This document shows positions 15,260 to 42,160 of a DNA stretch of 64,000 nt, piece by piece. The notes under the pieces are model-generated. The model was not told where the DNA came from. It made no database searches and worked only from the letters and a program-made list of their open reading frames with translations. The stretch lies in assembly GCA_965153355.1 (NCBI GenBank), contig OZ231126.1, positions 14,322,001 through 14,386,000 of the forward strand, given 5' to 3'. Both the position numbers and the translations under genes were made by a program. Each line of letters opens with the position of its first letter. Position 1 is the stretch's first letter. This DNA is from Flaccisagitta enflata. Taxonomy: Eukaryota.

Positions 15260-15591
15260 CAGGGGTGTATATAATTGAGCGGCTTTTGATTTTATTCCCC
15301 CCCCCCCCCGGCCTTTGATTTTCTTCCCCGCGACGCGTCGCGTCGCATTATAAAATCAATGATTTTCTTCCCCAAAAAGCAATAAAACAGTAAATCATAG
15401 GTTTAAATGGTGTTAAAATGTGTTGTAGTAATCAGAGACTACTAATTAGAACTACCAAAAGCGGAAAATCTTCAAAAAATTTCTTTTTTCTTTTTTTTTT
15501 AGCTTTTGATTTTTTTCCCCATCTCCAAACCCTTTGATTTTATTCCCCCCCCCCCGCCGGGGGGGGGAATGCTCAACTTTATACACGCCTG
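15260..15591. mobile_element. hAT-type MITE
   Basis: CAGGGGTGTATA / TATACACGCCTG termini, 8-bp TSD TTTTAGTC, repeated TTTGATTT motifs. Confidence 0.85.
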
Positions 15592-15864
15592 TTTTAGTCG
15601 CGTGCTACGTGACTCTACACCCCGCTTTGACGGTCTGTCGGTCGGTCCATCAGTCGGTCCGTAGGTCGGTCTGTCGGTCGGTCCGTAGGTCCGTAACACT
15701 TTACTTTTTTGGGATAGCCGTGTATCCGGCCTTGTTTTTGTTTTTCTCAACAACGGGATATCTTTTGTCAGTGCAGTAAGACAAATGATCATTCTCCGGT
15801 CTCCGGTTGTTTAGGCCCGTATGCGAAAATTAGCGCGTGCGTGCGTCCGGAAGTGTATGCATCT

Positions 15865-15917
<53 letters not shown>

Positions 15918-16225
15918 TCACATGAGACAGTTGAGACAGTCCGGTGGTCTTTTTCACGTTCACTGTTTTTGTACTTACTTATCGTGGCTCAGTTTGCCTC
16001 AGTTTGCCTCAGCCTGGCTCACAAGCGCAGTAATTTGCTTCTAAATAGCGGAGTAGGAGACGATAGACGAACACCCAGACTTTGCTCGATGTTGTTGTGG
16101 GCAAAACGCGGTAATGGAAGGTAAGATCATTTGGTTAATGTCTAATGTCGTCGGACGCTTTCACGTTTCTTTTTTTCTGTTTTCATCCTCTTTTTGTGCG
16201 CCTTCAAACTTCCCGTGTGTTTTTG

Positions 16226-16483
<258 letters not shown>

Positions 16484-16827
16484 TTTTATTTTCTCCTTGG
16501 TAATCTTCTCTCTACTCAGTTGGAATTCGTTGTATGTTGATGGTGTTGTTAGAAGATAATTCCGTCAGTGCTTCCGCCGACAGCCATGGCCATAATGTTA
16601 CATGGAAATCTAATGGGAAGATGACCTATCAGTTATGACCCTTTCTCGTTGGAACGTTGCTTTAGTATCCGAGTGATGATATTCCCCCGGAGCGTGATGA
16701 CCCAGTTTTTCACCCGTATTCTCTTTCTGCCCGGGCGAATGCAAACCTGGAGACCCGGTTTTGATGCCAGACCATCGATCGATATGCATATGTGCCATAC
16801 TATCTAGGAAATATTCATGAAATAAAC

Positions 16828-20892: not shown

Positions 20893-21682
20893 TGAGAGCG
20901 TTTAGCGTCTAGTTTCTTAGCAAGCTCCTGATGCGTAATCGCGAGAACTGACTCCACTGCGTAGCTGCGCTAATGATTTGGAACGCACACCCGCTTAGAA
21001 CGAATTGTTGAGATGAGCGGTCAAGTTGTCCGCGAAATCAGTCTATTCGTGGAATCCTGACGGACAGAGAAAAGGAAAAAGGTTAGGACAAACTCTGTAC
21101 ATCAATGAAAGATACTTCTGTAAGGCGCCAAAAATGATAAAAAGGTCAAGGACTTACACGGATGTTGTCGAACGGTTTCCAATCTAGGCGCAGGGCAGGG
21201 AAGTCGGGGAAAAAGCATCAAAATCGAGTCTTTAACTGAGATCGTGAAATCGAATGTCAGTAAGAAAGTCAGGGAAGCTACTTTTACTTAACCTGGAAAT
21301 AACAACAAAAATGAATCAAAGCATCACGAGATTTGAAATTATTTGGCAGCAATGGAACAATGATAAATGGAATCGTCACGTCGTGGGAATTCGATAGAGG
21401 GGTCGAAGTCTTTTCTCCTCTAAGCGGTTGAGGAGATATAGTTCATCAATCCTCAACCGGAAGTCAGCGCTTCCGGCGCGCGCGCGCGTTCCTCCCCTTC
21501 CTCCGTCGATCGAAGATCTCTCTCCTTCTCCTCGATTTCCTCCACTCTGCAGTCGAGCAGACGCCATCTTGGATTTTCGGCAGCGAGAGAGCCTCTCCTC
21601 TTCTTCGGGATCCGCGGAGTCGACTGCATCCGATCGAGCGCTTCTTGACCTGGATATGGTGGGGAATGTGCAGAATGTCACA
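20893..21682 (-). repeat. 3' LTR of element B
   Basis: Direct repeat of 32571-33360; one substitution seen by eye (21392 C vs 33070 T). Confidence 0.97.
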
Positions 21683-21694
21683 GTCCCCCCATTT
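21683..21694 (-). promoter_or_regulatory. Polypurine tract of element B
   Basis: Minus strand AAATGGGGGGAC immediately before the TG of the 3' LTR. Confidence 0.8.
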
Positions 21695-22522
21695 GAAATA
21701 TTTGCCAAAAAATTTCAAATCTCGTATCTAACTAGTTTCTTGTCAGGGAATACCGTTCATTTTAAAATTTACAAGCTATGACAACATCCGGGGCTCATCT
21801 CAAAACAAAAATTTTTAAATATTACAAAGACACTATTATAAATATCGTGGATCTCGCGCGGATAAGACGATTCAGAAAATGGGTTCTAGGAGCAGAAACA
21901 CCTACCACCGTCGATCGTCCGGGCTATCGCTACGGTCTGGTTATGAATTGCTCCTCTTGCTCCATTCTGCATCCAGTCTTCATGCTAAACAAAAGAAAAA
22001 GGTAACGATACTAGATCCACGGGAATGATGGACTGAAATAAATAATTAGACTATACGCTAAGTGGCCTATACTAGTGTATATACTATACTAAACTACGTA
22101 CCAACGCCCCGTTAGGATTGTCCATCACTCCAGCACGTACGTCTCTGAAATGTAAGCGGGAGGGGGGGTTCCCCCACACCCGGGATGGGTATGGAGAAAC
22201 GGATTTGGAGAGTTAGAACTGATTCTCATTCCTCAAATCATACGCTTAATATTCTAATTTGGTACAATTGATTCATGAGCAATTCAAAACCCCCCTACCC
22301 CTCGACACTTACGCGGGAGAGTCGCAGGGGGGTCCCCGGTGGGACCCCCTCCCCCGACCGCCCTCTAGAGAAGCGAGGACGGCCGGCCTGTCCGTCACCG
22401 GAAGCATCTCGAGTCGCCATTGGATGATCAACCGCTAGTCTTCCGCGACGACGTGAAACGTCGGTATGATACGCGCGATTGAAGTGGGAAGACGATGGCC
22501 GGGATCATGGCGACGAGACCCT

Positions 22523-24852
22523 CTACTTCCGGCCTTTACCCCTGCCGCCCTTTCCTCCACGATAGGATGGCGCGTCGTCTTTCCTACTGTGGCGTGGAGG
22601 GGGGTTTCTGCCGGAAGGTGGCGCGTGGGTGCTCGACGACGCGGAGTGGCGTTGAGTGCCGGAAGTCGATGGCATCTGTCCGTCGGGCTGAGAGAACTCA
22701 GCGCGGACGCGGTCGGCTTCCTTCTTCGCGTCGGACAGCAGCTGGGCCATCTGAGCAACCTTTGCGTCGTGCTCACCGACAACCTTCATCCTAAAGTTGT
22801 ATTGTTCGATGAGCTTCCTCGCCGATCTGGCTCTATCCACGGCGTGATCGGCAGCGTAGATCGCGCGATCCATCGGAGATGAGTTGGGATAGAAGGCCGC
22901 CGGAAGAATGTCTACAACCTTTTGAATATCCTTCGACCGAGGATGACTTGGCAACTTGATGGCGACAGCCAACATCGTCTCGGTCAGAAGGTCTTCCGGC
23001 GATCGGGGAGGGCGGTGTGAAGGAGAGGAAGCGGATACAGTCGACGTTGACGACCTGTTGGACGTCGACGCATCCCCAGACTTCCTTTTTGGACGACGAT
23101 TTCTCTTCTTTTTGTTGGCGTTTTGCTCCTCTCGTCGCTGTTGGTCGTCGTTGACGGGAGGAGGAGGAGGTGGGGGCAGATTTGCGGCTGCCCCTGCGAG
23201 CGCACCCCCTTGATTGTTCGTTGTCGTCGTCGTTTGAGTTGGGACCCGGATTGGTGAAATGTCACGTGACCGCTGGCGTTGAGGAGGAGGAGGCCGGGGA
23301 GCAGGACCATGTGGTAATCTCGCGGGACCATCCATCACCGTCGATGATAACGATGCGGATGCATCCGGCGGTCCACCCCTGCTCACCCGACGTCTCTTCT
23401 CACTCACTTCGATTTGTAGATTGTTGGCGCCAGCTTTGGCTCGTCGATCGTCTCTCGGATGGTGTTGTGGAGGATCCTGCGTCGCGGGCGTCTGACGCTG
23501 ATCACTGCCACTTCCGGTCGAACGAATAGCCTCCGCGATCCGACGAGCGGCTCCTTCACGTCGTCTTTTTCTCTGATTTGAGGCTTTTCCGCGGGAAATG
23601 TCTCTCAAAGTCCCATTTCCCATGTCCGCCGTTGCTCCAATAGATCTGATGTTGATGATCTTGCACAATTGGAGCGTCTCGCGTGTTTCAACCGTCGCAA
23701 TCTCTCCGTCCTCTTCGACTAATTCGTCTCTGATTATTTGCGTTGGAACATATGCTCTTCGCTCGGCTTGTGGATGAAGAGCATCTCTCTCCGCACGTAA
23801 GCTACGCTGCTTGTCGTGGTACATCGCAGTGTGCTTCCGCTCGATGAGGGCGTCGACTTGGGCGTTGTAGATCTTCACCAATTCGACTGCTTGTTCCTGC
23901 GAGATGGAGGACAGGTCACTGATGTACGGCGGGATCACCAGCGTCGCGTCAGGTGATGCTTGAAACGGCGCCGGCGCGGTCGAGTCTGCGGCCGGCGTTA
24001 CTTGTAACGTCGGCAACTCCACGACCGCCTGCGACGTCTGCGGCGGCGGCGGCAGAATTGGGGGAGCAAGAGAAGGAGCAGTAAGTACCTGTAGGGGCGG
24101 GTCGAGCAACCTCCCCGGGGGGAAGTCCCTCTCCCCTTCCGTCATGTTCGTGAGTGTCCATGTCATCGCCCTCACTGTCATCCTGAGTCTCGTAGTCGTC
24201 ATCGTCGTCGTCGTCGTCAATCGTCAAAGTCTAAGTTGTCAGGGTCATTCAAATCCTGTCGCTCCACTTCTCCTGCTCCGCGTGGCGGCGGGGGGGCGTC
24301 CGTGGTGGAGTCCGACGTCGACTCCCCCATGAGCGCCTCCACTCCCGAGACTGCCGTATCGAAGCTTTCGTTGGCAGCTTGTTCTCTTTTCGCCTTTCTT
24401 GCCGCCCGGAGCGCATCGTCGGCTTGACGACGCGCTTCACCAGCGGCGCGCTTGTCGGCAAAGGCGTTGGCATCGAACGCGTTGAGGGCCCGAGCAGGAA
24501 TAGGGTCCGTAACGGTCCACGCGCCGGAAGACGAGTCGTTGAAGAGATGGCTGACCCCGTCGATGACGTCATCAGCTCCTCCAACGACGGACTGTTGCAA
24601 CCCGCGAAGCCTGCGTTGTTCTCTGAGGGACGCTGCCCTGGCCTCCTGCTCCTGTCTCCTCCTCTTCTTCTCCGGGTCTTTCTTCTCTTCCTCCACTTTC
24701 CTCTTCTCCTCTTCCACCCTCGCCCGCTCCTCTTCCATCCTCCTCGTCTCCTCCTCATGACTCCTCACCAACTCGTCCTGGGCTTGCGCCATTCGCTGCC
24801 TCCTCGCTTCGCGGATCTTGTCCGGCGTGCCATGGTTGTTCTGCTGCGACAT
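22523..24852 (-). pseudogene. Extra ORF3 of element B (~775 codons, two frame breaks), unknown non-env protein
   Basis: ORFs 24217-24852, 23949-24227 and 22523-24220 join; one extra T at ~24220 restores DNLDFDDDDDDDDDYETQ. Coiled-coil N-terminus, acidic tract, Pro-rich and basic clusters, RGG tail; CAG acceptor 11 nt before the ATG. Confidence 0.7.
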
Positions 24853-25396
24853 GATGGATCTCTCTGCAACAGTTATGCGACGATACCGACAAGGGGAAGC
24901 TTTTAGCGTAAGATAGTGTAAACGCCTGTTTTTGGAGAAAATTCAGATTTCGAGGTGTAATCAAACGGAAAGAGGAAGACATATTCATCAACATTGAGGA
25001 AGATTAAATGGTATACGCAGACAAAGAAATAAAGACTCTTCGATCAGCGCCTCAAATGACCTCCACTCTCAACAGTCAATGATATGGATAAAACGGAAAA
25101 GAAAATGACGAACGAATGCCTCTATATGGTCAATACAAGATTGAAATGGCATGGCAAAATTTGGATTGTCAGTCAATCATGCGGACATTCTCAACTGACT
25201 GGGGCACCATGTACCTCTCTCTCTCCTGTAATTACACACAAAGACATATCAGACAGACCGACTGAGAAAAAGTAAACAAGACCAAAATATTCATGAGAGA
25301 AAGAACCCTCATTTTCATGTATAGTCCTTACAAATAGAAGCACTTATGCTTCTTTCTGGTCTACTTCCTCTCTCTCTCTTCACACTTATCCGTTTT

Positions 25397-28300
25397 TTAA
25401 TCTGAATCCAGCTCCAATCGGACGATCTTCGACCGATCCTTGAGAACAATCTTGCCGTCGGGGCGTAGGATCTGTGCTTTCCGGACATGACCACCAGATC
25501 CTTCCACTTCGACGACGCGTCCCAAAGACCACTGATGCCGATGAAGCGTCTCGTCAACGATGATGACCAATGCATCTTTTTTAATGTTCACTTCCGACTT
25601 TGTCCATTTACTCCTTGCGTGCAGCAACTGAAGGTATTCGGCGCGCCATACCTTCCAGAAGGCGTCGACGCGGGCCTGTGCGTTTCTCCATCGGCATCTC
25701 GTTCCCACGGCGTCGTTTCCGGTCTCTGGAGGGAGAATAGCTGCCGACGAGTGCGAGAACGTAGACGGATGCAAGATGTTCACCGGCCTCAGCGCCGATG
25801 TATCGCTAGGATCGTCGCTCAAAGGCGTGAGAGGTCGACGGTTGAGAATTCCTTCCACCTCAATCACTGCCGTTTGGAAGACGTCGTAATGGAGCACGTG
25901 ACCGGAAGTAATGGACGCCAAGTGTTTTTTGAAAAGGGATACGACCCTTTCCCATACGCCGCCGTAATGAGGAGTCCCAGGAGGAATGAAGTCCCATTGG
26001 AGTCCATGCTGCTGCAGAGCCACCGTCGACGACGCGTTCCACGACTGCATCTCCTCCTTCATGACGCGATTTGCCCCAACCAGGTTGGTGCCACAGTCTG
26101 ATATGAATCGACGCACCGTTTGCCGTCTCGCCGCGAATCGAATGATGGCATTGATCATTGCCTCTGTGTCCATTTTAAACAAAACCTCCACATGCACCGC
26201 CCTCGAAACCATGCAGGTAAACACCACTGCCCAGACTTTATGGTCCGCCCTGCCGTTCAGTTTCACCAGGAAGTGGCCCATACAGTCAAGTCCCACCTCC
26301 TCGAAGGGCGCTGTTGGAATTAGCCGTCGTTGAGGGAGAGGCGCCATCTGTTGCTTCATAGGATCTTTGAAGTTTCTTTGGCACGTGACGCAATGGTGGA
26401 TGACTGTTTTTACCGCCTGGAGACCTCGAAGAATCCACACAAAGCGTCGCAGTTGGCATAAGACGTGTTTTGGGCCTGCATGAAGATCCTGATGATGAAC
26501 GTGGCGAATCAGAGAAGTGACGTTTGGATCCTTCGATGGGAGAATCATCGGGTATTTCTCATCATGGCCAATATCCGCATTCACCAGTCTGCTCCCGACA
26601 CGCATCGTCCCTTTCTCGTCAACAACCGGATTGTGATGACGTAGAGATTTGCAGATCACTTTGGCGCCGGCGTCATTAATCAGCGGCGTCGTTTTTCCCA
26701 CCGCCTTCAACTTGGTTATCTCTCCATGGAAATGTTTGAACTGGATTGCGTTCAAGCGGCGTTGTGCGTCGTACAACTCAGCCATAGATACAGATGGATT
26801 TGGCAGCGTCGTCGCCGCTGCTCTGGTTTTTGCCTTCACCTTCTGTCTCCATCGCTGCGCGCACTTCACAATCACGGCGATCAAACGCAATTTCGCCACC
26901 CATTCCTGGCGACGGGCTGCCACTGCGTAGGCGAACATTTCCTTCTCCTTCTCCCCCTCCTCTTCTTCCACCGCTTCTGTCGCGACGGCGTTGATTGATG
27001 CCTCCGGCGCCGTCGCAATATTCATTACCGGCCACTCAGATTTGGGAAGGTAGAGAAACTTTGGACCGAAATGGAAGATGTCCCATTTTTCTTTGTCGCC
27101 GGCGTCAATACCCCGCGAACAATAGTCCGCGGGGTTATTCTCCGAATCAACCCACCTCCATTGAGAATCACTTGAGCCGCTGTGGATTTTTGAAAGTCGG
27201 TTTGCGAAGAAGCTCGGACGTTTAGATTTATGGTCGAAAATCATCTTCAGCACCGCCTCTGAATCTGACCAGAGCGTCACCATGTCCTCGGTTACCTTTG
27301 GAATGGTCCTCTTGATGAACAGTTTGAGTTTCACCGCTTTCTCTGCCGCTGTCATTTCTAACCTCGGCACTGAATTGTGGTGCGACGCTTTTGACGCATC
27401 AAGAGGGACGACGTGGGCCTTGGCGCACAAAATGGTAACGCGGATTGTTCCATCCTCATCTTCCACCAACCAATAGCCCACTACTCCAAACCCAGGGATG
27501 GCGGCGTTGCAGAAAATGTGAACTTCTCGTCGAACGGCCTTCACTATGCCCCACTCAATATGGCGCGGAATTTCAATCTGGATCAGCAATGGAGTCGCAG
27601 AGTACCATTTGGCGAAGCGTTTGATCAACGCCTCCTCCATCGTCGAATCCCATCCTTTCTCGGAAGCTCTCGTCAACTGAAGACACCTCCTCCCTTCAAG
27701 GGCGCGGGGCGCTGTGAATCCTAATGGATCATAGTTGTCGGCTTGCATGGAGACCAATTCGCGAGGAGTCGTTGCCACCCTCTTGCATGCTTCTGGATCG
27801 CATCTGAAGATGAAGCAGTCCGTCGACGGCAACCATTGGACCCCCAAGACCTTCGTTGGCTCCTCGAGTTTGGCGCTCAAGTCGACTGCGACGTTCGGAT
27901 CCTCATCCATCACCTCCACCGCGTTCGACTTCCACTTAGTCAGTAAACCGCCGCTCTTCATGGCGATGAGATCTTGCTTCAACTGCAGTGCCTCGTCAAC
28001 TGAATCCGCACCACCAGAGCCGTCATCAACGTAGAAGGCATGTCTTAACATTTCGTAGACATTTTCCGGGAAGTCGGGCTTGATCTTCTCTGCGTGATGG
28101 CGTAAAACATAGCTGGTGACGAGACTCGATGAGACAGATCCAAAGATGTGCGCAAGAAGAGCATCACGACGTTTCTCTCATGCTCTTGTCAGTGAACCAC
28201 ATATATGAACGTGTCCGCGCCTCAGGATGGACGCGGATATTATGAAAGAACGCCTTTATATCGGTCATCAGACCGATTTTATAAAGGCGAAATTTCATAA

Positions 28301-29396
28301 GGACTTCAGTCAAGACGTTCATGATATTCGGGCCTCCAATCAGTAGCTCATTGAGGCAAACGCCGCCAGTTTCCGCGCGTCCATCGTGACAAATCCGCGT
28401 TTTATTTCTTTCCTCCACCACATGGATGGGTAAGTACCAGCGGGGCGATGAGATGCTTGCGTCGTCGTTCTTCGGATCAATCTCAATCGCCACGCCCGTA
28501 TCCACAAATTTGTCCATTTCTTTGAAGACGCGATCGCGGAGGTCATGGTTGTTTGAGAGTTTATACCGGATGCTTTTTGTCCTTTTAATCGTCATCGCCC
28601 GTGCGTTGACAGACTTGATAATCTCGATGATCTTCTCTTTCTCATACCGCCATGGAAGCCCCACGACGTATTTTTGGAGATTCTCGTCGAAGTATATCGT
28701 CTCCATCACCCGCTTCACCGCGCGACGATTCTCTTCAGACTGACCCATTTCTTCCTCTGATACAATGGCGAAGTCATGATAGAACATGCGGTCGAGAGAT
28801 TTGCTCAATGCAACATTATCCACGTGGATTGCGTTAATGACAGCGGTATCGTCCGATCTTCGTCCACTCTTTCCTGCTACAGTCCATCCAAAACCGCATC
28901 TGAAGGCTGTCAAAGATCCTGATGGACCTCTTCTTGCCTCCACAGGCATCGTCGCGTCGTAATGGGCGGCGCCGATGATTAATTGGACAGGACCATTTAC
29001 TTTTGGAAATGGAATGTTGCGAAGATGAGATTGACTTGTGAAGTCGCGTTGGCATGGAGCAATATCCGCCTCACCCGTCAATAACTCTCCCGTTAGTGCG
29101 TTGCTGATGTGGACGTTGTATTCCTCGTCAATCGATGAAAGGATAAAGGACGCCAAAACTTTCTCCTCCACCACTTCACAATTGACCGTATGCACGCGCA
29201 TCAGCATCTTTTTGGTTGGTAAGTCTAATTTTTTAACGATTTGAAGCGATAAAACGTCACGATCCGCACCGCTGTCAATCATCCCCAACACTACGGTGGA
29301 ACGGCCCGTCGAGGCGTTGGTGATTTTTACAGGAACAATCGGTCGCGTGACATCATCCTCCGCGACCACCGTCCTCATCGCGGAGGTGGCAGCGAG
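25397..29396 (-). pseudogene. pol: pol of element B (protease, RT, RNase H, integrase), frameshifted near 28170
   Basis: GMIDSGADRD (protease), FYVDDG (RT), VHIFCNAA (RNase H with catalytic D->N), HHCC zinc motif, GLDCMG / ISDCGTN / GVWERVV (DDE integrase), FWKVWRAEYL C-terminal BEL domain. Confidence 0.93.
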
Positions 29397-32300
29397 TCAC
29401 GCCTCCATCACTCTTCCTTCATCAGATGCAGAGTCATCCGTCGACGAGCTGCTTGGGGGCGCTGGAGGAACGGTTTTGGAGGCGGCAGCGGCTGCGGCTA
29501 ATGCGGCGGCATTCGGCGTCTTGAACGTGATTCCTTCTCCATTCCCTCTCGGCTTGAATTGGCGGTCGTGTAGCAAAGTTGCGTGTCTCTTATTGCAGGA
29601 TGAGCATGTTGGCTTGTCTTTGCAGTCCTGCGCCGAATGGTTTGGGCAGAAACAATGAAAGCATAGACGTTTCTCAGCCAACTTCTTCACACGATCCTCT
29701 GCTGACGGGATGGCTTCTAAAACGTTGCACGAATGGGAATTATGACGACCTCCACAAATATTGCAGATGTCGTTGGGTTGTTGCTTCGGAGGTGAGTTGA
29801 CGAGCTGTTCCTTAAACGTCGCCGGACCAACTGCCGTCGCTGCAACCTTTGTCGGTTTCGGCGCCATGCGTGTTGGTTCTTTGAGGTTGTTGTACGACAC
29901 CCAATGCTTCACCTCCTCGATGAGTTCTTGGAAGCCGTAAGCCGTGCCATGGCGAGCTTGTTCACGCGCGCTCGCTTTCCAATAGTCCGTCGAGATGTGT
30001 GGCACCCTCGCGTTGATGATGCGGCGGATGTGGACGTCACGATCACACTCTCCAGGTACATTCAGCAATTCTGCGACGCTTTCCAGTTTGTACATCGTGC
30101 CAATCAATGCTTGATGGGCTCTCATGTCGTTTTCTGGAACCTTTCCTTTCCTGCAGATGCTGTCGACGGCCGATTGGAATGGGTTGGCGCTCGTGTTGAA
30201 CATCTCGTCCAGGCGTCTCCACAAGGTGCTGTAGACACGGCGCATATTGTGCTCCTTGATGATGAGATGTTGACCGTCGATGATTTCCTTCGCTGGATTC
30301 GCGAAGACGTTGGCCAATTCAGTCACTTTGTCGATTTCGTCTAGCTCGATGTTGGAGGCGGCATTTTCAAATTTGGATTTGGCAATGATATAGTCGATCG
30401 GCTCGAGGTATCCATACGCTTCTCTTGGACGTGCTGCGCGCATTTCCCTCAATCCCACGTCCTTTGCTCTGACGCGGGCGTCGTAGGCGATCGGATTGTC
30501 GATGAAAGAGACCGCGTTCATCCTCTCGGCGAAGGACTGCGAATGCGCGAGGCCGTTTTGCGCGGAGTCACTTCCGGTTTGACGTCTTTGATACGTAGGA
30601 GGCGACGGCGTTGGGGGTGGCGTCTTCCTCGACTTCCGTCGTCGCGAACCCTTCGTCATCGAAGACGTTGTCGACCAGGGGGCGCTGACTCCCGCGTACA
30701 TTTCGGGATGCTTGCGGAGCTGGAAGATCACCCGCGATTTGGCGGACGATGACGGGTGAGCTTGGTGATGGCGGCGTCGATTTGCGCGGTGGAACACGTG
30801 TCTGCAAAACGACGCTGTCCTCCAGGTTGAGATCGCTGATTAATTGTTGGACCCTTGCCATCGCGTCCGCGTGATCCATCGCGTTCTTTTCTTGCTCCGC
30901 TGCATCCTGTCTCGTGCGCAGTTGCTCGTGGAGAGGATGTTCACGTGCGGCTGGGGGTGGCGTCTTGGATGACAGTTGTTTCTGCTGACTTTTCTTTGCG
31001 CCTCTCTCCTCTTCCTCTCCTCTTCCTCTTTCCTTTTCTTCTCTTCCTCCTTTTTCTTTTCTTCGCGTCTTTTCTTCTCCTCCATCCTCTTCCTTTCTTC
31101 CGCGTCTCTTTTGGCCACCGCCTTCCTTCTCTCCTCCTCTGCTTTCCTCTCCGCTTCTTTCTCTTCTTTCTTCCTCTCTCCTTTCTCTCTTTTCCTGTGC
31201 GATCTTGTTCTTCAAGTTCGTCCTCCTTTTTTCCTCCTGCTCCTTTCTCGTCTCCTCTGCCTTCCTTCTCACTTCTTCAGCGTGGATGCGTTGTCTTTCC
31301 TCCTCCTCCTCCTTCTCCTTCTTCCTCCTCTCCTCCTCCTCCCTTCTTTTCCTCTCGTCGATCCCGGCCGTGACCGCGTCTGTCCGGGCAGTAACGGCTG
31401 CGTCTAATGCGATGTTTGCCGTCAGCTGCCGGGCGTTCTCTTCCCGTTGTTGGGATACAGATTGCGAACTGAGACGGAATCTTGTGTTTGCGCGTGCTTC
31501 TCTCGCCACCGAGCGTCGAACTTGGTTGACGTCGTTGACGAGACGTTTGACGACATGCACCATCGCGTCGCCTTGAGCGTCTCTGTCGCCATCAATAATT
31601 GACTGCTGTAGCATGTCGAGAAGATCTTGTGTGGGAGGGGCGCCGCCAACGGCGCCTGGAGGGAGGTCGGCGTCGGCGTTCGGCCATGACGTTTCCATCG
31701 CGTCGTCGGCGTCGTCGCCTTCATCGTCTCTGGCTGACATAAAACGCGACCTCGCTGGCGTCACCGGCGTTGGAGGTTCAAAGTTTATACGTATTTCCTT
31801 GGCGTCTTCTATCGCGCCTGGCGTATGGGGCGGCGCGTTGTGACGTTGCTCCGCTGCATTGAGATTCGCTGCTTCCGTACCGACGGGCAAGTCGTCCTCT
31901 CCCGCGTCTTCATCGTCGCCGGTCACGTTCGGCGTTGATTTGCGTCGTCGTGAGAGGGATTGGACAAAATGCGTCGACGACCCCATCGTCATCTCGAGAG
32001 CGCGTTTTGCTCCAGTCTCTGGTGACTCGTCGTGGATATCGTGGTAAGTCGGCAGGAACAAGTGTGAGGCAAAAGTGTTTTTATCGTGGAAGCATGATTG
32101 GTCCCACAGTTTCCGTACTTCCGTCAATGAGCTTTCGGCCGTCGATAATAGTGACGCCGCTTTGTCGGGATTGTTCGTCGACTCTGCATGTGCGTAAGTC
32201 TTTGTCGTGTTTACAAGTCGCCACGCCGCTAACCACACCTCCTTTCGAAGGCAGTCCATATCTTGGTAAAAGTCCAATATATCGTCATCGTTAAGAGTAT

Positions 32301-32526
32301 CGGCGGTTTTCAACGCCGACATGTAGGCGTTGCGCGTGTTGCGTAGCGCCTTTCGTAATCCGCGAAGCGTCGTGGCCACGGGGTCCATTGCGCCCGCGTA
32401 GACGGACGAGTCGGAAACGACGGACACGCAGTCGGTTGGTCGAAAGGCCTTTCTGCGTTGATTGGGCAGCGAAGGTGGCGGCATTGACATCGCGTCGGCG
32501 TTGGCGTTGTTGTTGGCGGTCGACAT
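29397..32526 (-). pseudogene. gag: gag of element B (~1040 codons, frameshifted)
   Basis: ORFs 30568-32526 and 29397-30797; three BEL-type knuckles CNICGGRHNSHSC, CFHCFCPNHSAQDC, CSSCNKRHATLLH; E/K/R-rich helical segment. Confidence 0.88.
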
Positions 32527-32558
32527 CGTTGACGTTGCGTGGATCGTTGATGGTTTTT

Positions 32559-32570
32559 GATTCCACGAAT
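32559..32570 (-). promoter_or_regulatory. Non-tRNA primer-binding position ATTCGTGGAATC (candidate self-priming site)
   Basis: Abuts the LTR-terminal CA; exact reverse complement of the sense 12-mer GATTCCACGAAT at 32734-32723. Confidence 0.7.
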
Positions 32571-33360
32571 TGAGAGCGTTTAGCGTCTAGTTTCTTAGCA
32601 AGCTCCTGATGCGTAATCGCGAGAACTGACTCCACTGCGTAGCTGCGCTAATGATTTGGAACGCACACCCGCTTAGAACGAATTGTTGAGATGAGCGGTC
32701 AAGTTGTCCGCGAAATCAGTCTATTCGTGGAATCCTGACGGACAGAGAAAAGGAAAAAGGTTAGGACAAACTCTGTACATCAATGAAAGATACTTCTGTA
32801 AGGCGCCAAAAATGATAAAAAGGTCAAGGACTTACACGGATGTTGTCGAACGGTTTCCAATCTAGGCGCAGGGCAGGGAAGTCGGGGAAAAAGCATCAAA
32901 ATCGAGTCTTTAACTGAGATCGTGAAATCGAATGTCAGTAAGAAAGTCAGGGAAGCTACTTTTACTTAACCTGGAAATAACAACAAAAATGAATCAAAGC
33001 ATCACGAGATTTGAAATTATTTGGCAGCAATGGAACAATGATAAATGGAATCGTCACGTCGTGGGAATTTGATAGAGGGGTCGAAGTCTTTTCTCCTCTA
33101 AGCGGTTGAGGAGATATAGTTCATCAATCCTCAACCGGAAGTCAGCGCTTCCGGCGCGCGCGCGCGTTCCTCCCCTTCCTCCGTCGATCGAAGATCTCTC
33201 TCCTTCTCCTCGATTTCCTCCACTCTGCAGTCGAGCAGACGCCATCTTGGATTTTCGGCAGCGAGAGAGCCTCTCCTCTTCTTCGGGATCCGCGGAGTCG
33301 ACTGCATCCGATCGAGCGCTTCTTGACCTGGATATGGTGGGGAATGTGCAGAATGTCACA
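32571..33360 (-). repeat. 5' LTR of element B
   Basis: Direct repeat of 20893-21682; GC-rich U3 with CCGGAAG and AAGATGGCG motifs, Inr-like TCAGTT at 32917-32912, candidate intron 32835-32735. Confidence 0.97.
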
Positions 33361-34401
33361 TACACAAACAGGAAATTTTGGTTTCACTTTACTTTTTGCT
33401 TGTGATATAGATTTAAAATAAAAAGATATTATTGAGATTTTAGTTAATTATTTTTGATATAATTTATAAGGAGTCTGAACAATGTTTTTAAACCCAGAAT
33501 ACTAATAATGGTTTCATAACAATCAGAAATAGAAATTGAATGTTTGAATTCCTCAGAAAAATAGTGAACAAAATTAAAAAATATTGTTAGGTGAAATTAT
33601 ATCATGTCCTCAGTAAAGAAAATTTTGCATTTCTAAGATCATGGCCCTTTTCTTATATGTTTTTAAAAAGAGGCCATGTTCTTGGAAATACAAATTTTTT
33701 TTATTTCTATGCACCTAACAGGAATGAGATGACAAAGTATAATTTTCTATAAAAAATCTTCCTTTCTGTACCTTTTTTCAATATATTATGTACATTAAAT
33801 TTGTATGTCAGAGATTAACTATGCAAAAGTTTATTGTTCAACACTTAAAAAATGTTTTTTCAACAAAAAAAATTATAAAAAAATGATATAAAAAATATCT
33901 AAAAAAATTGAAATGAACCATGAAATTTCTTTTTCCCTTACACTGCGTCATATGTTCTTCTTTACATGTCAGGCTGATCGTATCGATATTCTCCTTACAG
34001 CATAACAAATTGTAACATATAAAAAAATATATAGAAAGACAAATTGATGAACCCACCATTTAAAAGAAAGTCTCCGATATTTGCTGTCATCATTCTTAAA
34101 GATGGGTGGCTAAACTTATGTCCCGCCCCTGATATTTCTTGCATCAATCTCCACAGGCTCATCACTCAGTGCTATGTATAATAGTGACGAGCCATCCAGT
34201 CCACGGCTTGTCTTACACATCGTTCACGTTCTTTCCTCAACCTCAAAATGTGGTTTATCGTTCCCAGGGTATTCGCAAAACCTTGATTAACCCTTTTTCT
34301 CCTCCGAAGGCGATCAGGCGATAGTCCTAATGAGGTACGCAGGACTGAGAGTGATGCCATGGTATCGGCGACGTGCCTTCACTATGCCTGGGCCCTGACT
34401 G

Positions 34402-34692
<291 letters not shown>

Positions 34693-35789
34693 TATGCACG
34701 CGTGTTCCATGTTACTCCTGATTGACGTTTCCATTGAAAACCGATTTGCCAATTTAGACTCGAGTAATTTCGACTCTTTGACGTCATGACACCAATTAAC
34801 AAGTGAGAAGTTGGGGCAGAAGGCAGAGGGCGTCATTTGGAAATCATGAACGAGATCTAAATTGAAATCTCAGAAATAATCTTAATCAAGATCCAACTTG
34901 CCATGAATTAAACCAATGACTGAAATATTGAATATTGGCGCAATTTCTGTGAGATGAGTTATCAAACGAAGAGCTTTCTGAGCTCTCTGAGCTTTCTGAG
35001 CTTTCTGAGCTTTCTGAGCCCTCTCATCAAACAAACAAATCGCTCCTCTCCAATTTCTCCCACCTTTTTTTGCCTTGAAATCTTGGAGGGGAAATAAGTT
35101 ATCGCGTTGGAACGAACGGAATTTAAAGACCACCTCAGTTTCCCTCAGGCAGCTGAGATTCATATAATGGATTACTTGAATATACTTTTCCCCAGCGCTC
35201 TCTTAGTCTTGCCTTTTTGTCTACACTATAGATCTTTCTTAACTATGAAACTCGTCATTCCCTCATATCTCTATTACTCGTCCGTCGGTCCGTCCATTAC
35301 GTGCGTGTCTCTACAACAAGTCCACCCCCATCCACACCCTTGCCCACCCCACACACAATCACGCACATAAATATGTGCCTTTTCGCTTCTTCAACTCGAT
35401 CACCTCGGACGAACCAACGCGACGGACCAACGGACCGATGGATGGAGAGACGGGCAAAGCCTCTTAAATGGAGTTGCGTGTCCGCAACAAAAAACCACAA
35501 CGCGTACGCACTGAGTTGCACATACGGTCTTGTTTGTCCTTTTTTTCCCCCGTCCTGTTTTAATTTCCGTTTACGCCCACACACCGATTTTCTGCGAGGG
35601 TGCCGTGATTTTGGGAGAATTAAAAGAAGAAGAGGCACGAAACAGAAAAAGAGTGTTTGGGCGGTGCTTAATGTTGATTCATCCCAATTCAGTGAATCAC
35701 TTCACTCTTCAGCTTCGTTAGAGATGAGGAGAAAAAGGAGAAGAGTGACTGAGAGCAAATTGTTTCAGACGAAACGATGGCAGACGAAG

Positions 35790-36188: not shown

Positions 36189-36388
<200 letters not shown>

Positions 36389-36631
36389 TAGACAGACAGA
36401 CAGTCACATAGGTCACTACAACTCTTTCGTAATAAATTACAAAACTAAGTTATTTCAAACGATTTGTTTTCGTTGTCGAAACAAGCCCAGGCGGGCAACT
36501 GGATGCGTCATCTGCGTGATATTAGAAGAGGCGTAACGGACGGACGGACGGACGGACGGACGGACGGACGGACGGACGGATGGACTGACGGACCGACGGA
36601 CGGACGGACGGACGGACAGACCCTCTTATAG

Positions 36632-37690: not shown

Positions 37691-37820
37691 TTTTTTGTTA
37701 TTTTTGTTTGTCCCATGAAATGAGAGTAATACCTTGTCATTATAAAATCATTTATGATGTTAAGAGTGAGAACTGAAACAAGTAAGGCTGTGTTACCCCC
37801 CCTCCTCCCCTTTACACACG

Positions 37821-37914
<94 letters not shown>

Positions 37915-38434
37915 GCTCTAGACATACGTAAGTGATAGATGCACTTAAGTTAATTTGACGGAGTAATGTCACAATGAATCAACCTAGTGTTCCGCCACCA
38001 CCTACGCACAGCGCGAATTTGCGCTCTCTTGGCACAGAAAAATGGCGTAAAAATCGAGAGGAAATAACTAAGAGTCCATCAATCAACGTCAATCCGATTC
38101 TGAGCCGTTGTGGCGTGAATTGGAGGGGGGAATGACAAAGTCTTTGTCAAAGAACGCCGACAGGATCATTGACTCTTCCTTTCTTTTTTCTTCCTCCATT
38201 GTTATTGAGAATGGAGAGAAATCCAAACTGTGATCTCATCGATGAGAGTGGGAAAGGGAGGAATGAGATGAAGATTAGGAGTGTTTTGTGTCTGTCTTTA
38301 TACCATTAGTCCATTACCTTTAATAAAGGTCCTTTAATAAAGGTCCTTTAATAAAGGTCCTTTATGTATCCGGAGCGAGAGACAAAGACAGAGACAGTGG
38401 CAGACGAAAACTAGAGGGAGAAAAAGAGAGAAAG

Positions 38435-38686
<252 letters not shown>

Positions 38687-38769
38687 AGGAGTGTGAGGTA
38701 AGGTCACTCAAGTTATACGATTACAGAGAGAAATAGTTATGAATATAACATTAGGAAAAGTGTCATCAC

Positions 38770-38831
<62 letters not shown>

Positions 38832-39543
38832 TTCCTCTGCATCTCTTTCCAATCTCGTAGTTGGAAATCGAAAATGGAATATTCAGATTTGATTCGTAAG
38901 ATGGAAGAGATAACCGTGAGATATATCCCCATGAGTATAAGTAGACCATTCCCAAGGGTTCAACATAGGCTTTCTTGCGCGTAACGACCTGTCTGGTAGA
39001 TGTGTGTGTCTGTTTACGTGACAGAAAGAAAGAAAGAAAGACAAATATGCGGACATGAAGACTATTAGACATGCAGACAGAAAGACAGACAAAAAAACTG
39101 ATAGACAGTGTGTTCATGAAGAGCAATTGAAATAGTGAACTATAGATTGTATTTCCGACGAACCAACCGACCAACAGATGTTTTAGATGTGCTTTGCCAT
39201 TGGCGAAAAAAACTCTGAAAGCTGGCGAGCCTAGAGTGAACGAGGTCTTCTAGTTCTGGAAGGATTGGGACCAGTTGAAGCCAAGTGAGGGTCTATCTAA
39301 GAATGATTCAACCATCGACCATTTCTAGAATTCCTTCTTCTTTTCTTTCTTTTTTACGTAAATTGAGTTAAGAGAAGCGTAGGAAATCCAATTGAACTCT
39401 GGGGATTCATCATCACTTTTGCTTTCCCTTTCATTTGCACGTACGCAATTCTACAACCCAGTCGGAAGTTCGGTCCGTCCGTGTACTTAGTCACAGATGA
39501 TACTTTTCGGCGATTACCGACATTTGCATCGCCGTGCAATGTA

Positions 39544-39711: not shown

Positions 39712-40814
39712 AGGATAAATCCTGCCCGATGCTAACCATCTCTGATCTCTCACGTCACTATTCCTGCCCACCTGAACACCCCAAATCTCCCGCTATATCC
39801 GGCCTTGTATGAAGTAGTTTGTGTTCGCGTGATAGACGATGTTTTCCTTGCAAATTTATCTCGGTCAAGGCCGTTTTGCTTCGTACAAAAACGACGAAAC
39901 GAATTGCAGGAAACGAGGAATATTACTTGTTTGACATTGACATTATTGACAAGAAGGATGTGCATACATGAGGTAACTCATTTTGTCACGAACACGCGAT
40001 TCTACAAGTCGGTACATGTTCGTCGGTCTGTCGGAGATTCGGAGTTCGGTATCGCGTCGCGTCAATTCAATTCTCAGACGCGAAGTGGAATCGGACAGAG
40101 AGACGGAGTGGAATAAAGAAAAACAGAGAGAATGATTGACAGACAGACAGTGAGGAAGAGAGTAAGAAAGAAAAACGGAGGGATGGTGAAAGACAGATAC
40201 ACAGGGAGATTTACTATTAGACAGAGGGACGGGATAAGACAGACACACAAGAAGATTGACAGACAGGCATAAATAAGGACAGACCATGAGAAATCTCGCA
40301 AGATGGAAGAAGGCGTTTTAAAAGGTTCACTTAGCGAAAGAAAATATCCTTTACCCTCTTTCGAATGAGAGAGCCGCGTAAGACGTCGTGTTGTTGAATA
40401 TCCGCTTAGATCTTTTTTTTTATCCCCTTAATTCCTTTTTTTTCAAGTGTCTTGAAGGAAACTTTGAAAATCTCTACGCGGGGATTATTGGTTCGTTGAT
40501 CAGTGAAAACTGTAGGGAAGCGGTTGTAACAGGAACACGACCCAAATGCGCATCTTAGCATTTGAATCTAGAAAGATAAATGGATAGCATGAATGTAAAA
40601 ATACCATAAGTATTACTCTTTACAGTTAACAAATAGATATTATCCTATTAAACATGAGCGTCTGCCTTTCACTGTGAGTCTCAATATGGTACTGGTAGGT
40701 CGAATAAAAGGACAAAGGGTACAGCTCCGTCCCACCATCTTCACGCATTTTGTTTGTCCACGTCTGCGAGTAAGTTTTTCATCATTGCCGTCATTTTACT
40801 GCAAATATGTTCGG

Positions 40815-41942
40815 TTTTTAGTCGCGTGCTACGCGACTCTACACCCCGCTTTGTCGGTCGGTCGGTTGGTCGGTTGGTTGGTCCCCTCTCTACTTTTTCG
40901 GCGTTTTTTCAAAATGCCATTATAAGTCATTATAAGTCATTTTAAGTCATTCTAAGTCATTCTAAGTCATTTTAGGTCATATTAAGTTATATTAAGTCAC
41001 TTAAGTCAATAAGGTCAATATGGTCGTTAAAGTCATTTTAAGTCATTTTAAGTCATTTCAAGTCACCTTGAGTCATTGAAACTCAATTAAAGTCATCTTA
41101 AGCTATATATGTCCTGCATGCGACTTATAGGTGTTGGCCTTGTTTAGTCGCGTGCTACGCGACTCTATACCCTGCTATGTCGGTCCGTTGTTCGGTTGAT
41201 CAGTTGGTCGGTCCCCTTTTTGGGCAGCGGCCCCGAAGCGGTTGATGACCTATGCTTTCACACATATGGGCAATTTTCTCCTTCTCCTTCTGTACCCCCC
41301 CCCCCCCCGTCTCAAGGCCCAAATCCCAATACCAAGGCCCAAATCCCAGTACCAAGACCCAAACCCCCGTCTTGTGGCTTAAATCCTAGCTTCTCTACTC
41401 TACTCTAAATCCCAGCCTTGAACCCAAATCTCATCCTTGAGGCCCAAATCTCAGCCTCGAGGTCCAAATCTCAGCCAAGAGGCCCAAACCTCAGCCTCAA
41501 GGTCCAAATCCCAGCCCCAAGGATGAGATTTGGACTTCAAGGCTGGAATTTGGGCCTCCAGGCTAGGGTTTGGGCTTTGAGGCTAGAATTTTGGCCTTGA
41601 GGCTAGGATTTGGGCTACGAGACGGGGGCTTGGGTCTCGGGAATGGGATCTGGGCCTTAGCCGGACGGGCGGAGGAGGAGAAAATTCCCCATATGTGTGA
41701 AAGCATAGGTCATCGACCCCTTTGGGGCCGCTGCCCTGCTCCCCCTTCAACTTCAAGCAGAACCTACTCGGCAGGGCACGGGTACCGCTGACCATCTAAC
41801 GCTTTTGCGACTATTACTTTTTCGGCGTTTTTGAGCTTTTTGAGCATACTGCTCTTGCCCAGATGCCCTAGTGAGCTTCTGCAGCGCTGCTCCTGCCCAC
41901 CTGCACGCGACTTGGGTAGCCATGTATCCGGCCTTGTTTTTT
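40815..41942 (+). mobile_element. Two tandem HINE-A copies; the second carries a nested HINE-B (41217-41812)
   Basis: TTTAGTCGCGTGCTACGCGACT heads at ~40817 and ~41142, AAGTCATTTT repeats, GGCCTTGTTT tails; HINE-B inserted in a T-run. Confidence 0.65.
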
Positions 41943-42042
41943 TCACCGTTGTTTCACATATAAAATCGTTTCATTTCGTTTCTCATTTTTCTCCTTTCCT
42001 AATTTTCTGCTTCTTTGATTTCCTTCTTACCTTTCTCTTCAT

Positions 42043-42160
<118 letters not shown>

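Follow-up and report, generated by a model that had tools for sequence, protein, structure and literature searches.

The stretch of DNA considered here (hereafter the window) comprises 64,000 nucleotides of the Flaccisagitta enflata genome (assembly GCA_965153355.1, contig OZ231126.1, positions 14,322,001 to 14,386,000, forward strand) and contains, on its minus strand, a whole BEL/Pao retrotransposon bounded by two long terminal repeats (LTRs), the features of which are collected in Table 1. Within each LTR a segment with the sequence signals of a short spliceosomal intron ends at the base directly before a 12-nt sequence, the putative self-primer, whose exact complement lies just past the 5' LTR, at the place expected for a primer binding site (PBS). 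The arrangement is read here, tentatively, as an intron coupled to self-primed reverse transcription of the kind known from the fission yeast element Tf1.

Assignment of the element to BEL/Pao, and not to Ty3/gypsy, follows from the Pao-type domains of its Pol open reading frame (ORF), in which Pfam recognizes Peptidase_A17 (Pao; 5.2e-27), Integrase_H2C2, rve and DUF5641. Searches with Pol found 33 relatives at E <= 1e-10, and PF05380 is annotated for most of those among the matches listed. The order of the Pol domains, the LTR ends together with the purine tract and a 5-bp target duplication flanking the element (GTGTA, at 33365-33361 and 20892-20888, minus strand), and a Gag with zinc knuckles all agree with membership in BEL/Pao, of which the element is a young representative. 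Since its Pol domains are Pao-type it does not belong to the Tf1/sushi clade of Ty3/gypsy, and the likeness to Tf1 described below is one of working only.

Table 1. Features of the BEL/Pao element, in window coordinates
Feature	Position	Strand	Evidence or remarks
Whole BEL/Pao LTR retrotransposon, 12,468 bp	20893..33360	minus	LTR pair, target duplication, Pfam domains
5' LTR, 790 bp, TG...CA ends	32571..33360	minus	789/790 positions the same as 20893-21682
Upstream LTR segment with the best predicted duplex to the exon 1 end and donor	33289..33318	minus	-22.2 kcal/mol; 16/500 shuffles equal or better
Candidate exon 1, start undefined	32836..32917	minus	sequence; initiator-like (Inr-like) TCAGTT at 32917-32912
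Intron-like segment, 101 nt	32735..32835	minus	GTAAGT donor, CTAAC branch-like motif, 18/20 pyrimidines, CAG
Putative self-primer segment GATTCCACGAAT	32723..32734	minus	exact reverse complement of 32559-32570; predicted duplex -16.6 kcal/mol
Rest of R-U5 (repeat and unique 5' regions)	32571..32722	minus	presumed minus-strand strong-stop template, from the Tf1 mechanism as outlined in PMC5341516 and PMC4600332
Primer binding site ATTCGTGGAATC	32559..32570	minus	directly past the terminal CA of the LTR; A32558 a potential 13th pair
First ATG of ORF1	32524..32526	minus	32 nt past the PBS
gag-like ORF with two zinc knuckles (CX2CX4HX4C)	29400..30839	minus	translation; tblastn match to L003 3810-4781, 4.8e-39
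pol (protease, reverse transcriptase-RNase H, integrase)	25400..29396	minus	ORF layout, Pfam
ORF3 region, two frames	22526..24942	minus	of low complexity, charged and rich in proline; matches no family and is not conserved in L003
3' LTR	20893..21682	minus	preceded by purine tract AAATGGGGGGAC; holds the same intron-like segment and a primer copy (21045-21056)

The defining arrangement of the Tf1 mechanism, a PBS that adjoins the 5' LTR and is complementary to that same LTR, is present in the element. When the window was searched with the 12-mer at up to one mismatch, exactly three matches were obtained, namely the two LTR copies (32723-32734 and 21045-21056) and the complement at 32559-32570, and by our own arithmetic only ~5e-5 matches of an LTR-edge 12-mer would be expected by chance anywhere in a 790-nt LTR. 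The 12-bp helix between primer and PBS appears in both the minimum free energy (MFE) and the centroid fold of RNA from 32734 to 32540. The PBS does not begin with TGG and therefore offers no pairing with the 3' CCA end of a tRNA; no tRNA gene and no Rfam family, spliced-leader RNA included, was found in the 64-kb window. The exact pattern of primer followed by PBS had 0 matches in prokaryote genome contigs and in viral contigs. The reading of the 12-mer as a self-primer, already made in the initial annotation, is thus upheld by the flush position of the PBS and by the helix in both folds, and on the sequence it is sound and well supported.

The intron signals, too, lie on the minus strand where the initial annotation had placed them: the Inr-like TCAGTT at 32917-32912, the donor GTAAGT at 32835-32830, the branch-like CTAAC at 32764-32760 and, after the pyrimidine tract CTTTTTCCTTTTCTCTGTCCGT, CAG at 32737-32735, followed at once by GATTCCACGAAT. 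The branch-like motif stands 26 nt before the AG and the donor 101 nt upstream of the boundary between acceptor and primer, so that donor, branch motif, tract, AG and spacing all conform to the spliceosomal GT-AG consensus. The acceptor AG abuts the start of the primer directly, a position that is defined independently by complementarity to the PBS. Pairing with the PBS ends at this AG, as G32735 stands opposite A32558; the last base of exon 1, T32836, would by contrast pair with A32558, which bears out the earlier statement that the complementarity stops at the AG and that cis-splicing would add a 13th pair.

These signals differ in the weight they carry. The LTR acceptor is of a rare kind and more than a chance feature: YAG preceded by 18 or more pyrimidines in 20 occurs at 12 of the 128,000 positions of the window (both strands), the two LTR copies being themselves among the 12. 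The donor is not significant by itself (GTAAGT occurs 146 times in the same 128,000 positions, or ~0.23 expected per 200-nt upstream stretch), nor is TCAGTT, of which ~0.2 are expected in 790 nt (own arithmetic). On inspection of the sequence no strong donor was seen before gag in an RNA starting at 32734, which speaks mildly in favor of transcription beginning upstream of 32835. A second Inr-like sequence, CTAGATT, has its A at 32863, which would give an exon 1 of 28 nt; in L003, the relative described next, the Inr-like CCAGTGT with its A at 1623 would also give 28 nt. A further donor- and acceptor-like pair (22144-22312, minus strand, 168 nt, 17/20 pyrimidines) lies between ORF3 and the 3' LTR.

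Relatives of the element were sought with an alignment of 18 Pol proteins, which yielded 16 metagenome loci and none in prokaryote genome contigs or viral contigs; a search with the Gag N-terminus found no relatives in viral contigs or metagenome contigs. Only one of the 16 loci, L003, reaches the 5' LTR region. Its Pol is 43% identical to that of the window element and its gag-like ORF also matches (Table 1). The LTR regions of the two give no alignment signal in the intron, R-U5 or exon 1 (z below 0.4), and along the diagonal anchored at the donor there is no k-mer enrichment beyond TCAGGATT and the pyrimidine tract; a shared TTTTRATGCTT motif was dropped because that diagonal is not enriched. 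On its sequence L003 is an independent element, and since its LTR has no other similarity to that of the window element, the layout that the two share is not merely a matter of sequence descent. Two more distant loci, L015 and L016 (27% Pol identity), show no notable primer-like pairs and were not used. The ends of the L016 contig (1-1122 and 9639-10765) repeat each other and contain an ORF, which gives the appearance of a distant BEL/Pao element that was permuted circularly or assembled in tandem, rather than of a clean LTR pair.

The shared layout emerged when the window element and all loci were scanned for a strong acceptor preceded, at a distance of 45-300 nt, by a GTRAG[TA] donor. A single pair of this kind occurs in L003, with a GTGAGT donor at 1651 and exon 2 starting at 1752, an interval of 101 nt as in the window, and the junction TCAG/GATT (the slash marking the boundary) is common to both. 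The segment that follows, GATTAAAT (1752-1759), is complemented by ATTTAATC at 1889-1896, directly after a CA. Among the 13 acceptor-like sites of L003 only that at 1752 has a flush complement, and 8-mers whose reverse complement stands behind a CA 60-400 nt downstream occur at 4e-4 to 1e-3 per position. A composite scan of the window and the 16 loci on both strands, 257,558 bases in all, gave 140 acceptor-like sites. Four of them have a flush complement, 8 nt or longer, that is located 60-400 nt downstream; only two of these four, the LTR of the window element and L003 1752, also have an upstream GTRAG[TA] donor, 101 nt away in both, and CA before the complement. The GT and AG are accordingly kept in the single relative with a 5' region, an outcome that, as far as one relative with an unproven LTR limit goes, favors the initial annotation on the conservation of GT/AG among related LTRs for which it had asked.

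Joining of the exons would lengthen the predicted primer-PBS duplex in both elements. In the window the T32836-A32558 pair gives 13 bp and -18.2 kcal/mol, against 12 bp and -16.6 kcal/mol unspliced; in L003 the exon 1 end ACG pairs with CGT at 1897-1899 to give 11 bp and -11.4 kcal/mol, against 9 bp and -7.3 kcal/mol unspliced and 8 bp and -4.0 kcal/mol for an RNA that starts at the primer. Because the extending bases differ (T in the window, ACG in L003), an exon 1 proper to each element fits better than one shared spliced leader. When longer RNAs were folded, the outcome depended on their starts. L003 RNA from 1624 has a helix probability of 0.03 unspliced and 0.87 spliced, and spliced RNA that starts at 1616 or further upstream has at most 0.14; in L003, therefore, the helix is predicted only after removal of the intron and with a short exon 1. 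Spliced window RNA reaches 0.99 with starts at 32869 or further downstream, and its predicted folds tolerate starts only at or below ~32877. The start at TCAGTT (32917) favored in the initial annotation fits poorly with this result, as RNA from there has a helix probability of 0.86 unspliced and is predicted to lose the helix (0.00) when spliced.

The motifs, the complementarity, their rarity and the recurrence of the same architecture in one distant relative are plain features of the DNA, and from them we infer splicing, the transcription start, a dependence of priming on splicing and reverse transcription of the spliced RNA. The reading that a real 101-nt intron of spliceosomal type abuts a Tf1-like self-primer and is coupled to it is given a little less than an even chance. 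Transcription would start upstream of the donor, probably within ~40 nt, and in the 5' LTR copy of the RNA the intron would be removed, so that the primer then begins where the two exons meet and its duplex with the PBS is lengthened by the terminal bases of exon 1 (from 12 to 13 bp in the window, from 9 to 11 bp in L003). The primer, 32734-32723, would fold back onto the PBS, 32570-32559; the RNase H of the element would cut after the duplex, and the freed 3' end would prime minus-strand DNA, which would copy 32722-32571 and then jump to the 3' LTR copy. With priming at 32723 the strong-stop product would consist of 32722-32571 only, so that the upstream part of new LTRs would be copied from the 3' copy in the RNA; the intron, being copied from there, would be inherited only if that copy stays unspliced. 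The suggestion of the initial annotation that cis- or spliced-leader trans-splicing may define or license the primer, in distinction from Tf1, is kept as a hypothesis. Splicing would not define the primer in the way that the transcript start does in Tf1, as it does not place the primer at the 5' end of the RNA. Intron-flush self-priming is, on this evidence from sequence, a promising but unproven variant of self-priming.

Several observations count against the coupling of intron and primer. Unspliced window RNA already forms the helix from every start tested (probability 0.67-0.99), so splicing is not thermodynamically required, and spliced RNA from 32885 or further upstream, TCAGTT included, is predicted not to form it (0.00). 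In the mechanism of Tf1 and retroviruses, exon 1 left on the 5' side of the primer would deprive the plus-strand strong-stop of an obvious end past the PBS copy. The RNA has this donor and acceptor a second time, in its 3' LTR copy, and the intron is retained in all three LTR copies at hand (two in the window, one in L003). A canonical AATAAA was not found between the primer and the LTR end, near which there is an AAGAAA. Conservation of the splice sites and of the 101-nt length is seen in one relative only, whose LTR boundary is unproven, its contig having no 3' LTR. L003 moreover contains a perfect inverted pair of 16 nt (1149-1164 and 1636-1651), the downstream arm of which ends at the donor G and which could itself, judged by a CA at 1630-1631 and an AATAAA at 1216, be primer and PBS; in that case the intron of L003 would follow the PBS, which is the arrangement of retroviruses, instead of preceding the primer. 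We hold this assignment to be the less likely one, as the flush complement after CA, the identical 101-nt spacing and TCAGGATT would then be coincidences. The 16-nt pair is also unlikely to represent the inverted repeats of a small DNA insertion, as it has neither a flanking duplication nor a long hairpin. A second perfect pair, of 12 nt, is nested within it (1231-1242 and 1537-1548), and the AATAAA lies between the two pairs, which could mask the splice site or act as an alternative primer and PBS.

The same facts can be arranged differently. If transcription started at or within 2 nt of 32734, the primer would be the 5' end of the RNA, as in the mRNAs of Tf1, Tf2 and Tj1 (PMC4600332, PMC5341516), and the donor, branch motif and tract would be unused look-alikes or promoter elements. 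Such a start would make CA/G at 32737-32735 the initiator core, with the C-A step at 32737-32736 matching the usual pyrimidine-purine start; it would divide the LTR in ordinary proportions into a unique 3' region (U3) of 626 nt (33360-32735) and an R-U5 of 164 nt (32734-32571), would give the plus-strand strong-stop its end point and agrees with the helix probability of 0.99 for RNA from 32734 or 32736. GGACA at +28 to +32 from A32736 agrees, moreover, with what we take to be the consensus of the downstream promoter element. No TATA-like box, however, is present ~30 nt upstream of 32734, initiation at the primer would leave L003 with the weakest of the duplexes given above (8 bp, -4.0 kcal/mol), and chance must then account for the rare flush acceptor, for the identical donor spacing and the TCAG/GATT of L003 and for the added pairs that the exon 1 ends contribute in both elements; we regard this plain form of self-priming as possible, although unlikely. 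Self-priming might also be absent altogether, the 12-bp complementarity being a leader stem for packaging or dimerization and a host RNA the primer. BEL/Pao elements are generally described as tRNA-primed, and self-priming in BEL/Pao is not the subject of any title or abstract start in the literature searched, whose coverage leaves out subscription journals. The complement nevertheless starts at the first base past the LTR, which is the place of a PBS, has no initial TGG with which to pair a tRNA 3' CCA, is accompanied by no tRNA gene in the window and recurs in the same flush position after CA in L003, all of which make a host primer very improbable.

Two further accounts accept the splice sites and differ in their use. 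In one, 32735 is an acceptor for trans-splicing or capture, with G32734 receiving either a spliced leader or a host exon from upstream; expression of the LTR could then do without a precise start of its own, and the cis donor would be incidental. Branch motif, tract and AG would suffice for this, and there are precedents in Cer1 of Caenorhabditis elegans, an LTR retrotransposon with an acceptor for the spliced leader SL1 (PMC3315495), and in an Echinococcus LTR transcript described as competing with the spliced leader for one acceptor (PMC4558846). A leader joined on would still precede the primer on its 5' side, though, the donor spacing is conserved at 101 nt, and the extension of pairing by each element's own, differing exon 1 end (T, ACG) would not be expected of one shared leader; with no spliced-leader RNA or other Rfam family in the window, this account seems decidedly improbable. 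In the other, the intron is real and serves expression instead of priming: 32835 would be the main donor from which subgenomic or translated RNAs, one for ORF3 for example, are spliced, with 32735 as one of its acceptor partners, and unspliced RNA would be reverse transcribed. Unspliced RNA retains the primer-PBS helix at the probabilities given above, genomic RNAs of retroelements are normally unspliced (that of Cer1 is an example), and the 3' copy of the intron has to escape splicing in any case. There are candidate acceptors between pol and ORF3: the one that the initial annotation proposed for ORF3 at 24863 does exist (CAG at 24866-24864, ATG at 24852), but its tract is weak (11/20 pyrimidines) and fails a 16/20 filter, and a better acceptor-like site, with 16/20 pyrimidines, is located at 25261. 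ORF3 itself is of low complexity and not conserved in L003, and the flush acceptor in two unrelated LTR sequences and the exon 1 ends that extend pairing remain without explanation, so that a role confined to expression is considered improbable, if less so than the capture of a leader.

How the intron could be inherited under the preferred reading, in which it is coupled to the primer, is addressed by a segment far upstream in the LTR (33318-33289) that is predicted to form a duplex with the exon 1 end plus donor (Table 1). L003 has a counterpart at a similar distance from its donor in the arm at 1149-1164 of the perfect 16-nt pair, where a 16-bp duplex ending at the donor has -28.6 kcal/mol and is equaled or bettered by 0 of 500 shuffles. 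Folds of L003 1140-1660 and of window 33325-32826 do close with the donor helix, and the long-range stem has no support from energy (z of -0.24 and +0.23, respectively). Masking of the 5' splice site by this segment is possible, and a splicing switch that depends on position and governs self-priming in this BEL/Pao clade can be modeled upon it. In the 5' LTR copy transcription would start downstream of the segment, leaving the donor free, so that the intron is removed and the primer spanning the junction forms; in the 3' LTR copy the segment would be transcribed as U3 and would pair with the exon 1 end and donor, so that the intron is kept. As the 3' copy would keep the intron and the LTRs of progeny would be copied from that end, the intron would be inherited. 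The switch is speculative, and we rate it as improbable.

Introns, donors and self-primers in LTR elements have partial precedents. In the human T-cell leukemia virus 1/bovine leukemia virus (HTLV-1/BLV) group and in foamy viruses a major splice donor lies within R of the LTR; unlike in the window element, their acceptors lie outside the LTR, their primer is a tRNA and no whole intron is contained in the LTR. The primer duplex of Tf1 is 11 bp long, of the same order as the 12-13 bp here. Self-priming has been established for Tf1, Tf2 and Tj1 of fission yeasts and put forward for the Tf1/sushi group (work of Levin, 1995-1998, cited in PMC4600332 and PMC5341516). Like the window element, they have a PBS just past the 5' LTR that is complementary to the LTR, and their RNA is predicted to fold back; they differ in being Ty3/gypsy chromoviruses whose primer consists of the first bases of the transcript, whereas the window element belongs to BEL/Pao and has an intron-like segment before its primer. 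In Tf2, according to the sections cited of Persson et al. (2016, PMC5341516), alternative start sites decide competence for reverse transcription, which resembles the present proposal in that initiation or processing of the RNA licenses a transcript for self-priming; the switch described there, however, is between starts in the LTR and downstream of it and is set by nucleosome position, and that proposed here is removal of an intron. Spliced mRNA of Cer1 occurs with and without SL1, and the 8-kb genomic RNA skips these sites (PMC3315495), so that Cer1 is likewise an LTR retrotransposon with consensus splice sites that the full-length RNA for Gag and Pol must skip; it is a Ty3/gypsy element, and in the portion of that report drawn on here its sites are not reported inside the LTR or beside the primer. 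In maize, spliced transcripts contained in LTRs, with canonical junctions, are presented as the first evidence for LTR introns (bioRxiv 10.64898/2026.05.08.723830); as described in the part of the preprint cited, these introns are long (mean 1303 bp) and belong to non-coding, LTR-only RNAs, with no link drawn to priming.

The coding part of the element and the remainder of the window add the following. The pol frame of the window copy is broken near 28170-28200, as judged against an intact public protein (P0002, 1332 aa) that is 99% identical, and this break stands despite the near identity of the LTRs. ORF1 overlaps the gag-like ORF2 in another frame (30568-30839, minus strand), where L003 has a single ORF of 913 aa. 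The gag and pol ORFs are in the same frame with one stop codon between them (window 29397-29399, L003 4965-4967), which suggests that Pol may be made by stop-codon read-through, as it is in Tj1 and in type C retroviruses. Another BEL/Pao element, different from the first, occupies window positions 6 to ~5400 on the minus strand, where it is cut by the window start; its Gag with DUF1759 is followed by a Pao reverse transcriptase region, in-frame stops occur at 1383 and 3801, and its 5' region contains only a 13/15 inverted pair (5352-5338 and 5167-5153) and no flush acceptor. Outside the two BEL/Pao elements no ORF tested has a Pfam family above cut-off. A 76-nt repeat with a short palindrome, GTCGCGTGCTACGCGAC, is present in three copies 80-82% alike (15587-15662, 40811-40886 and 41137-41212), the last two of which flank a 10-bp satellite (TAAGTCATTT-like) at 40889-41123; the repeat is possibly a small mobile element. 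Long microsatellites, comprising AG, AC and TC dinucleotide arrays and a TTG array, lie at 16150-16500, 34267-34900, 36244-36440, 37790-37920, 38547-38850 and 42038-42160.

In the Tf1/sushi branch of Ty3/gypsy self-priming is a known mechanism, and a case in BEL/Pao would mean that it arose or persisted in a second great lineage of LTR elements; it would be the first self-priming reported in BEL/Pao. If the intron-flush arrangement works as the switch supposes, it would also be the first instance of an exon-exon junction building a primer for reverse transcription. If the intron is used, its inheritance would pose a concrete puzzle, as the two LTR copies of the RNA have their splice sites in common. 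Its use would also tie splicing directly to which transcripts are reverse-transcribed, and would constitute a new point of control over mobile elements.

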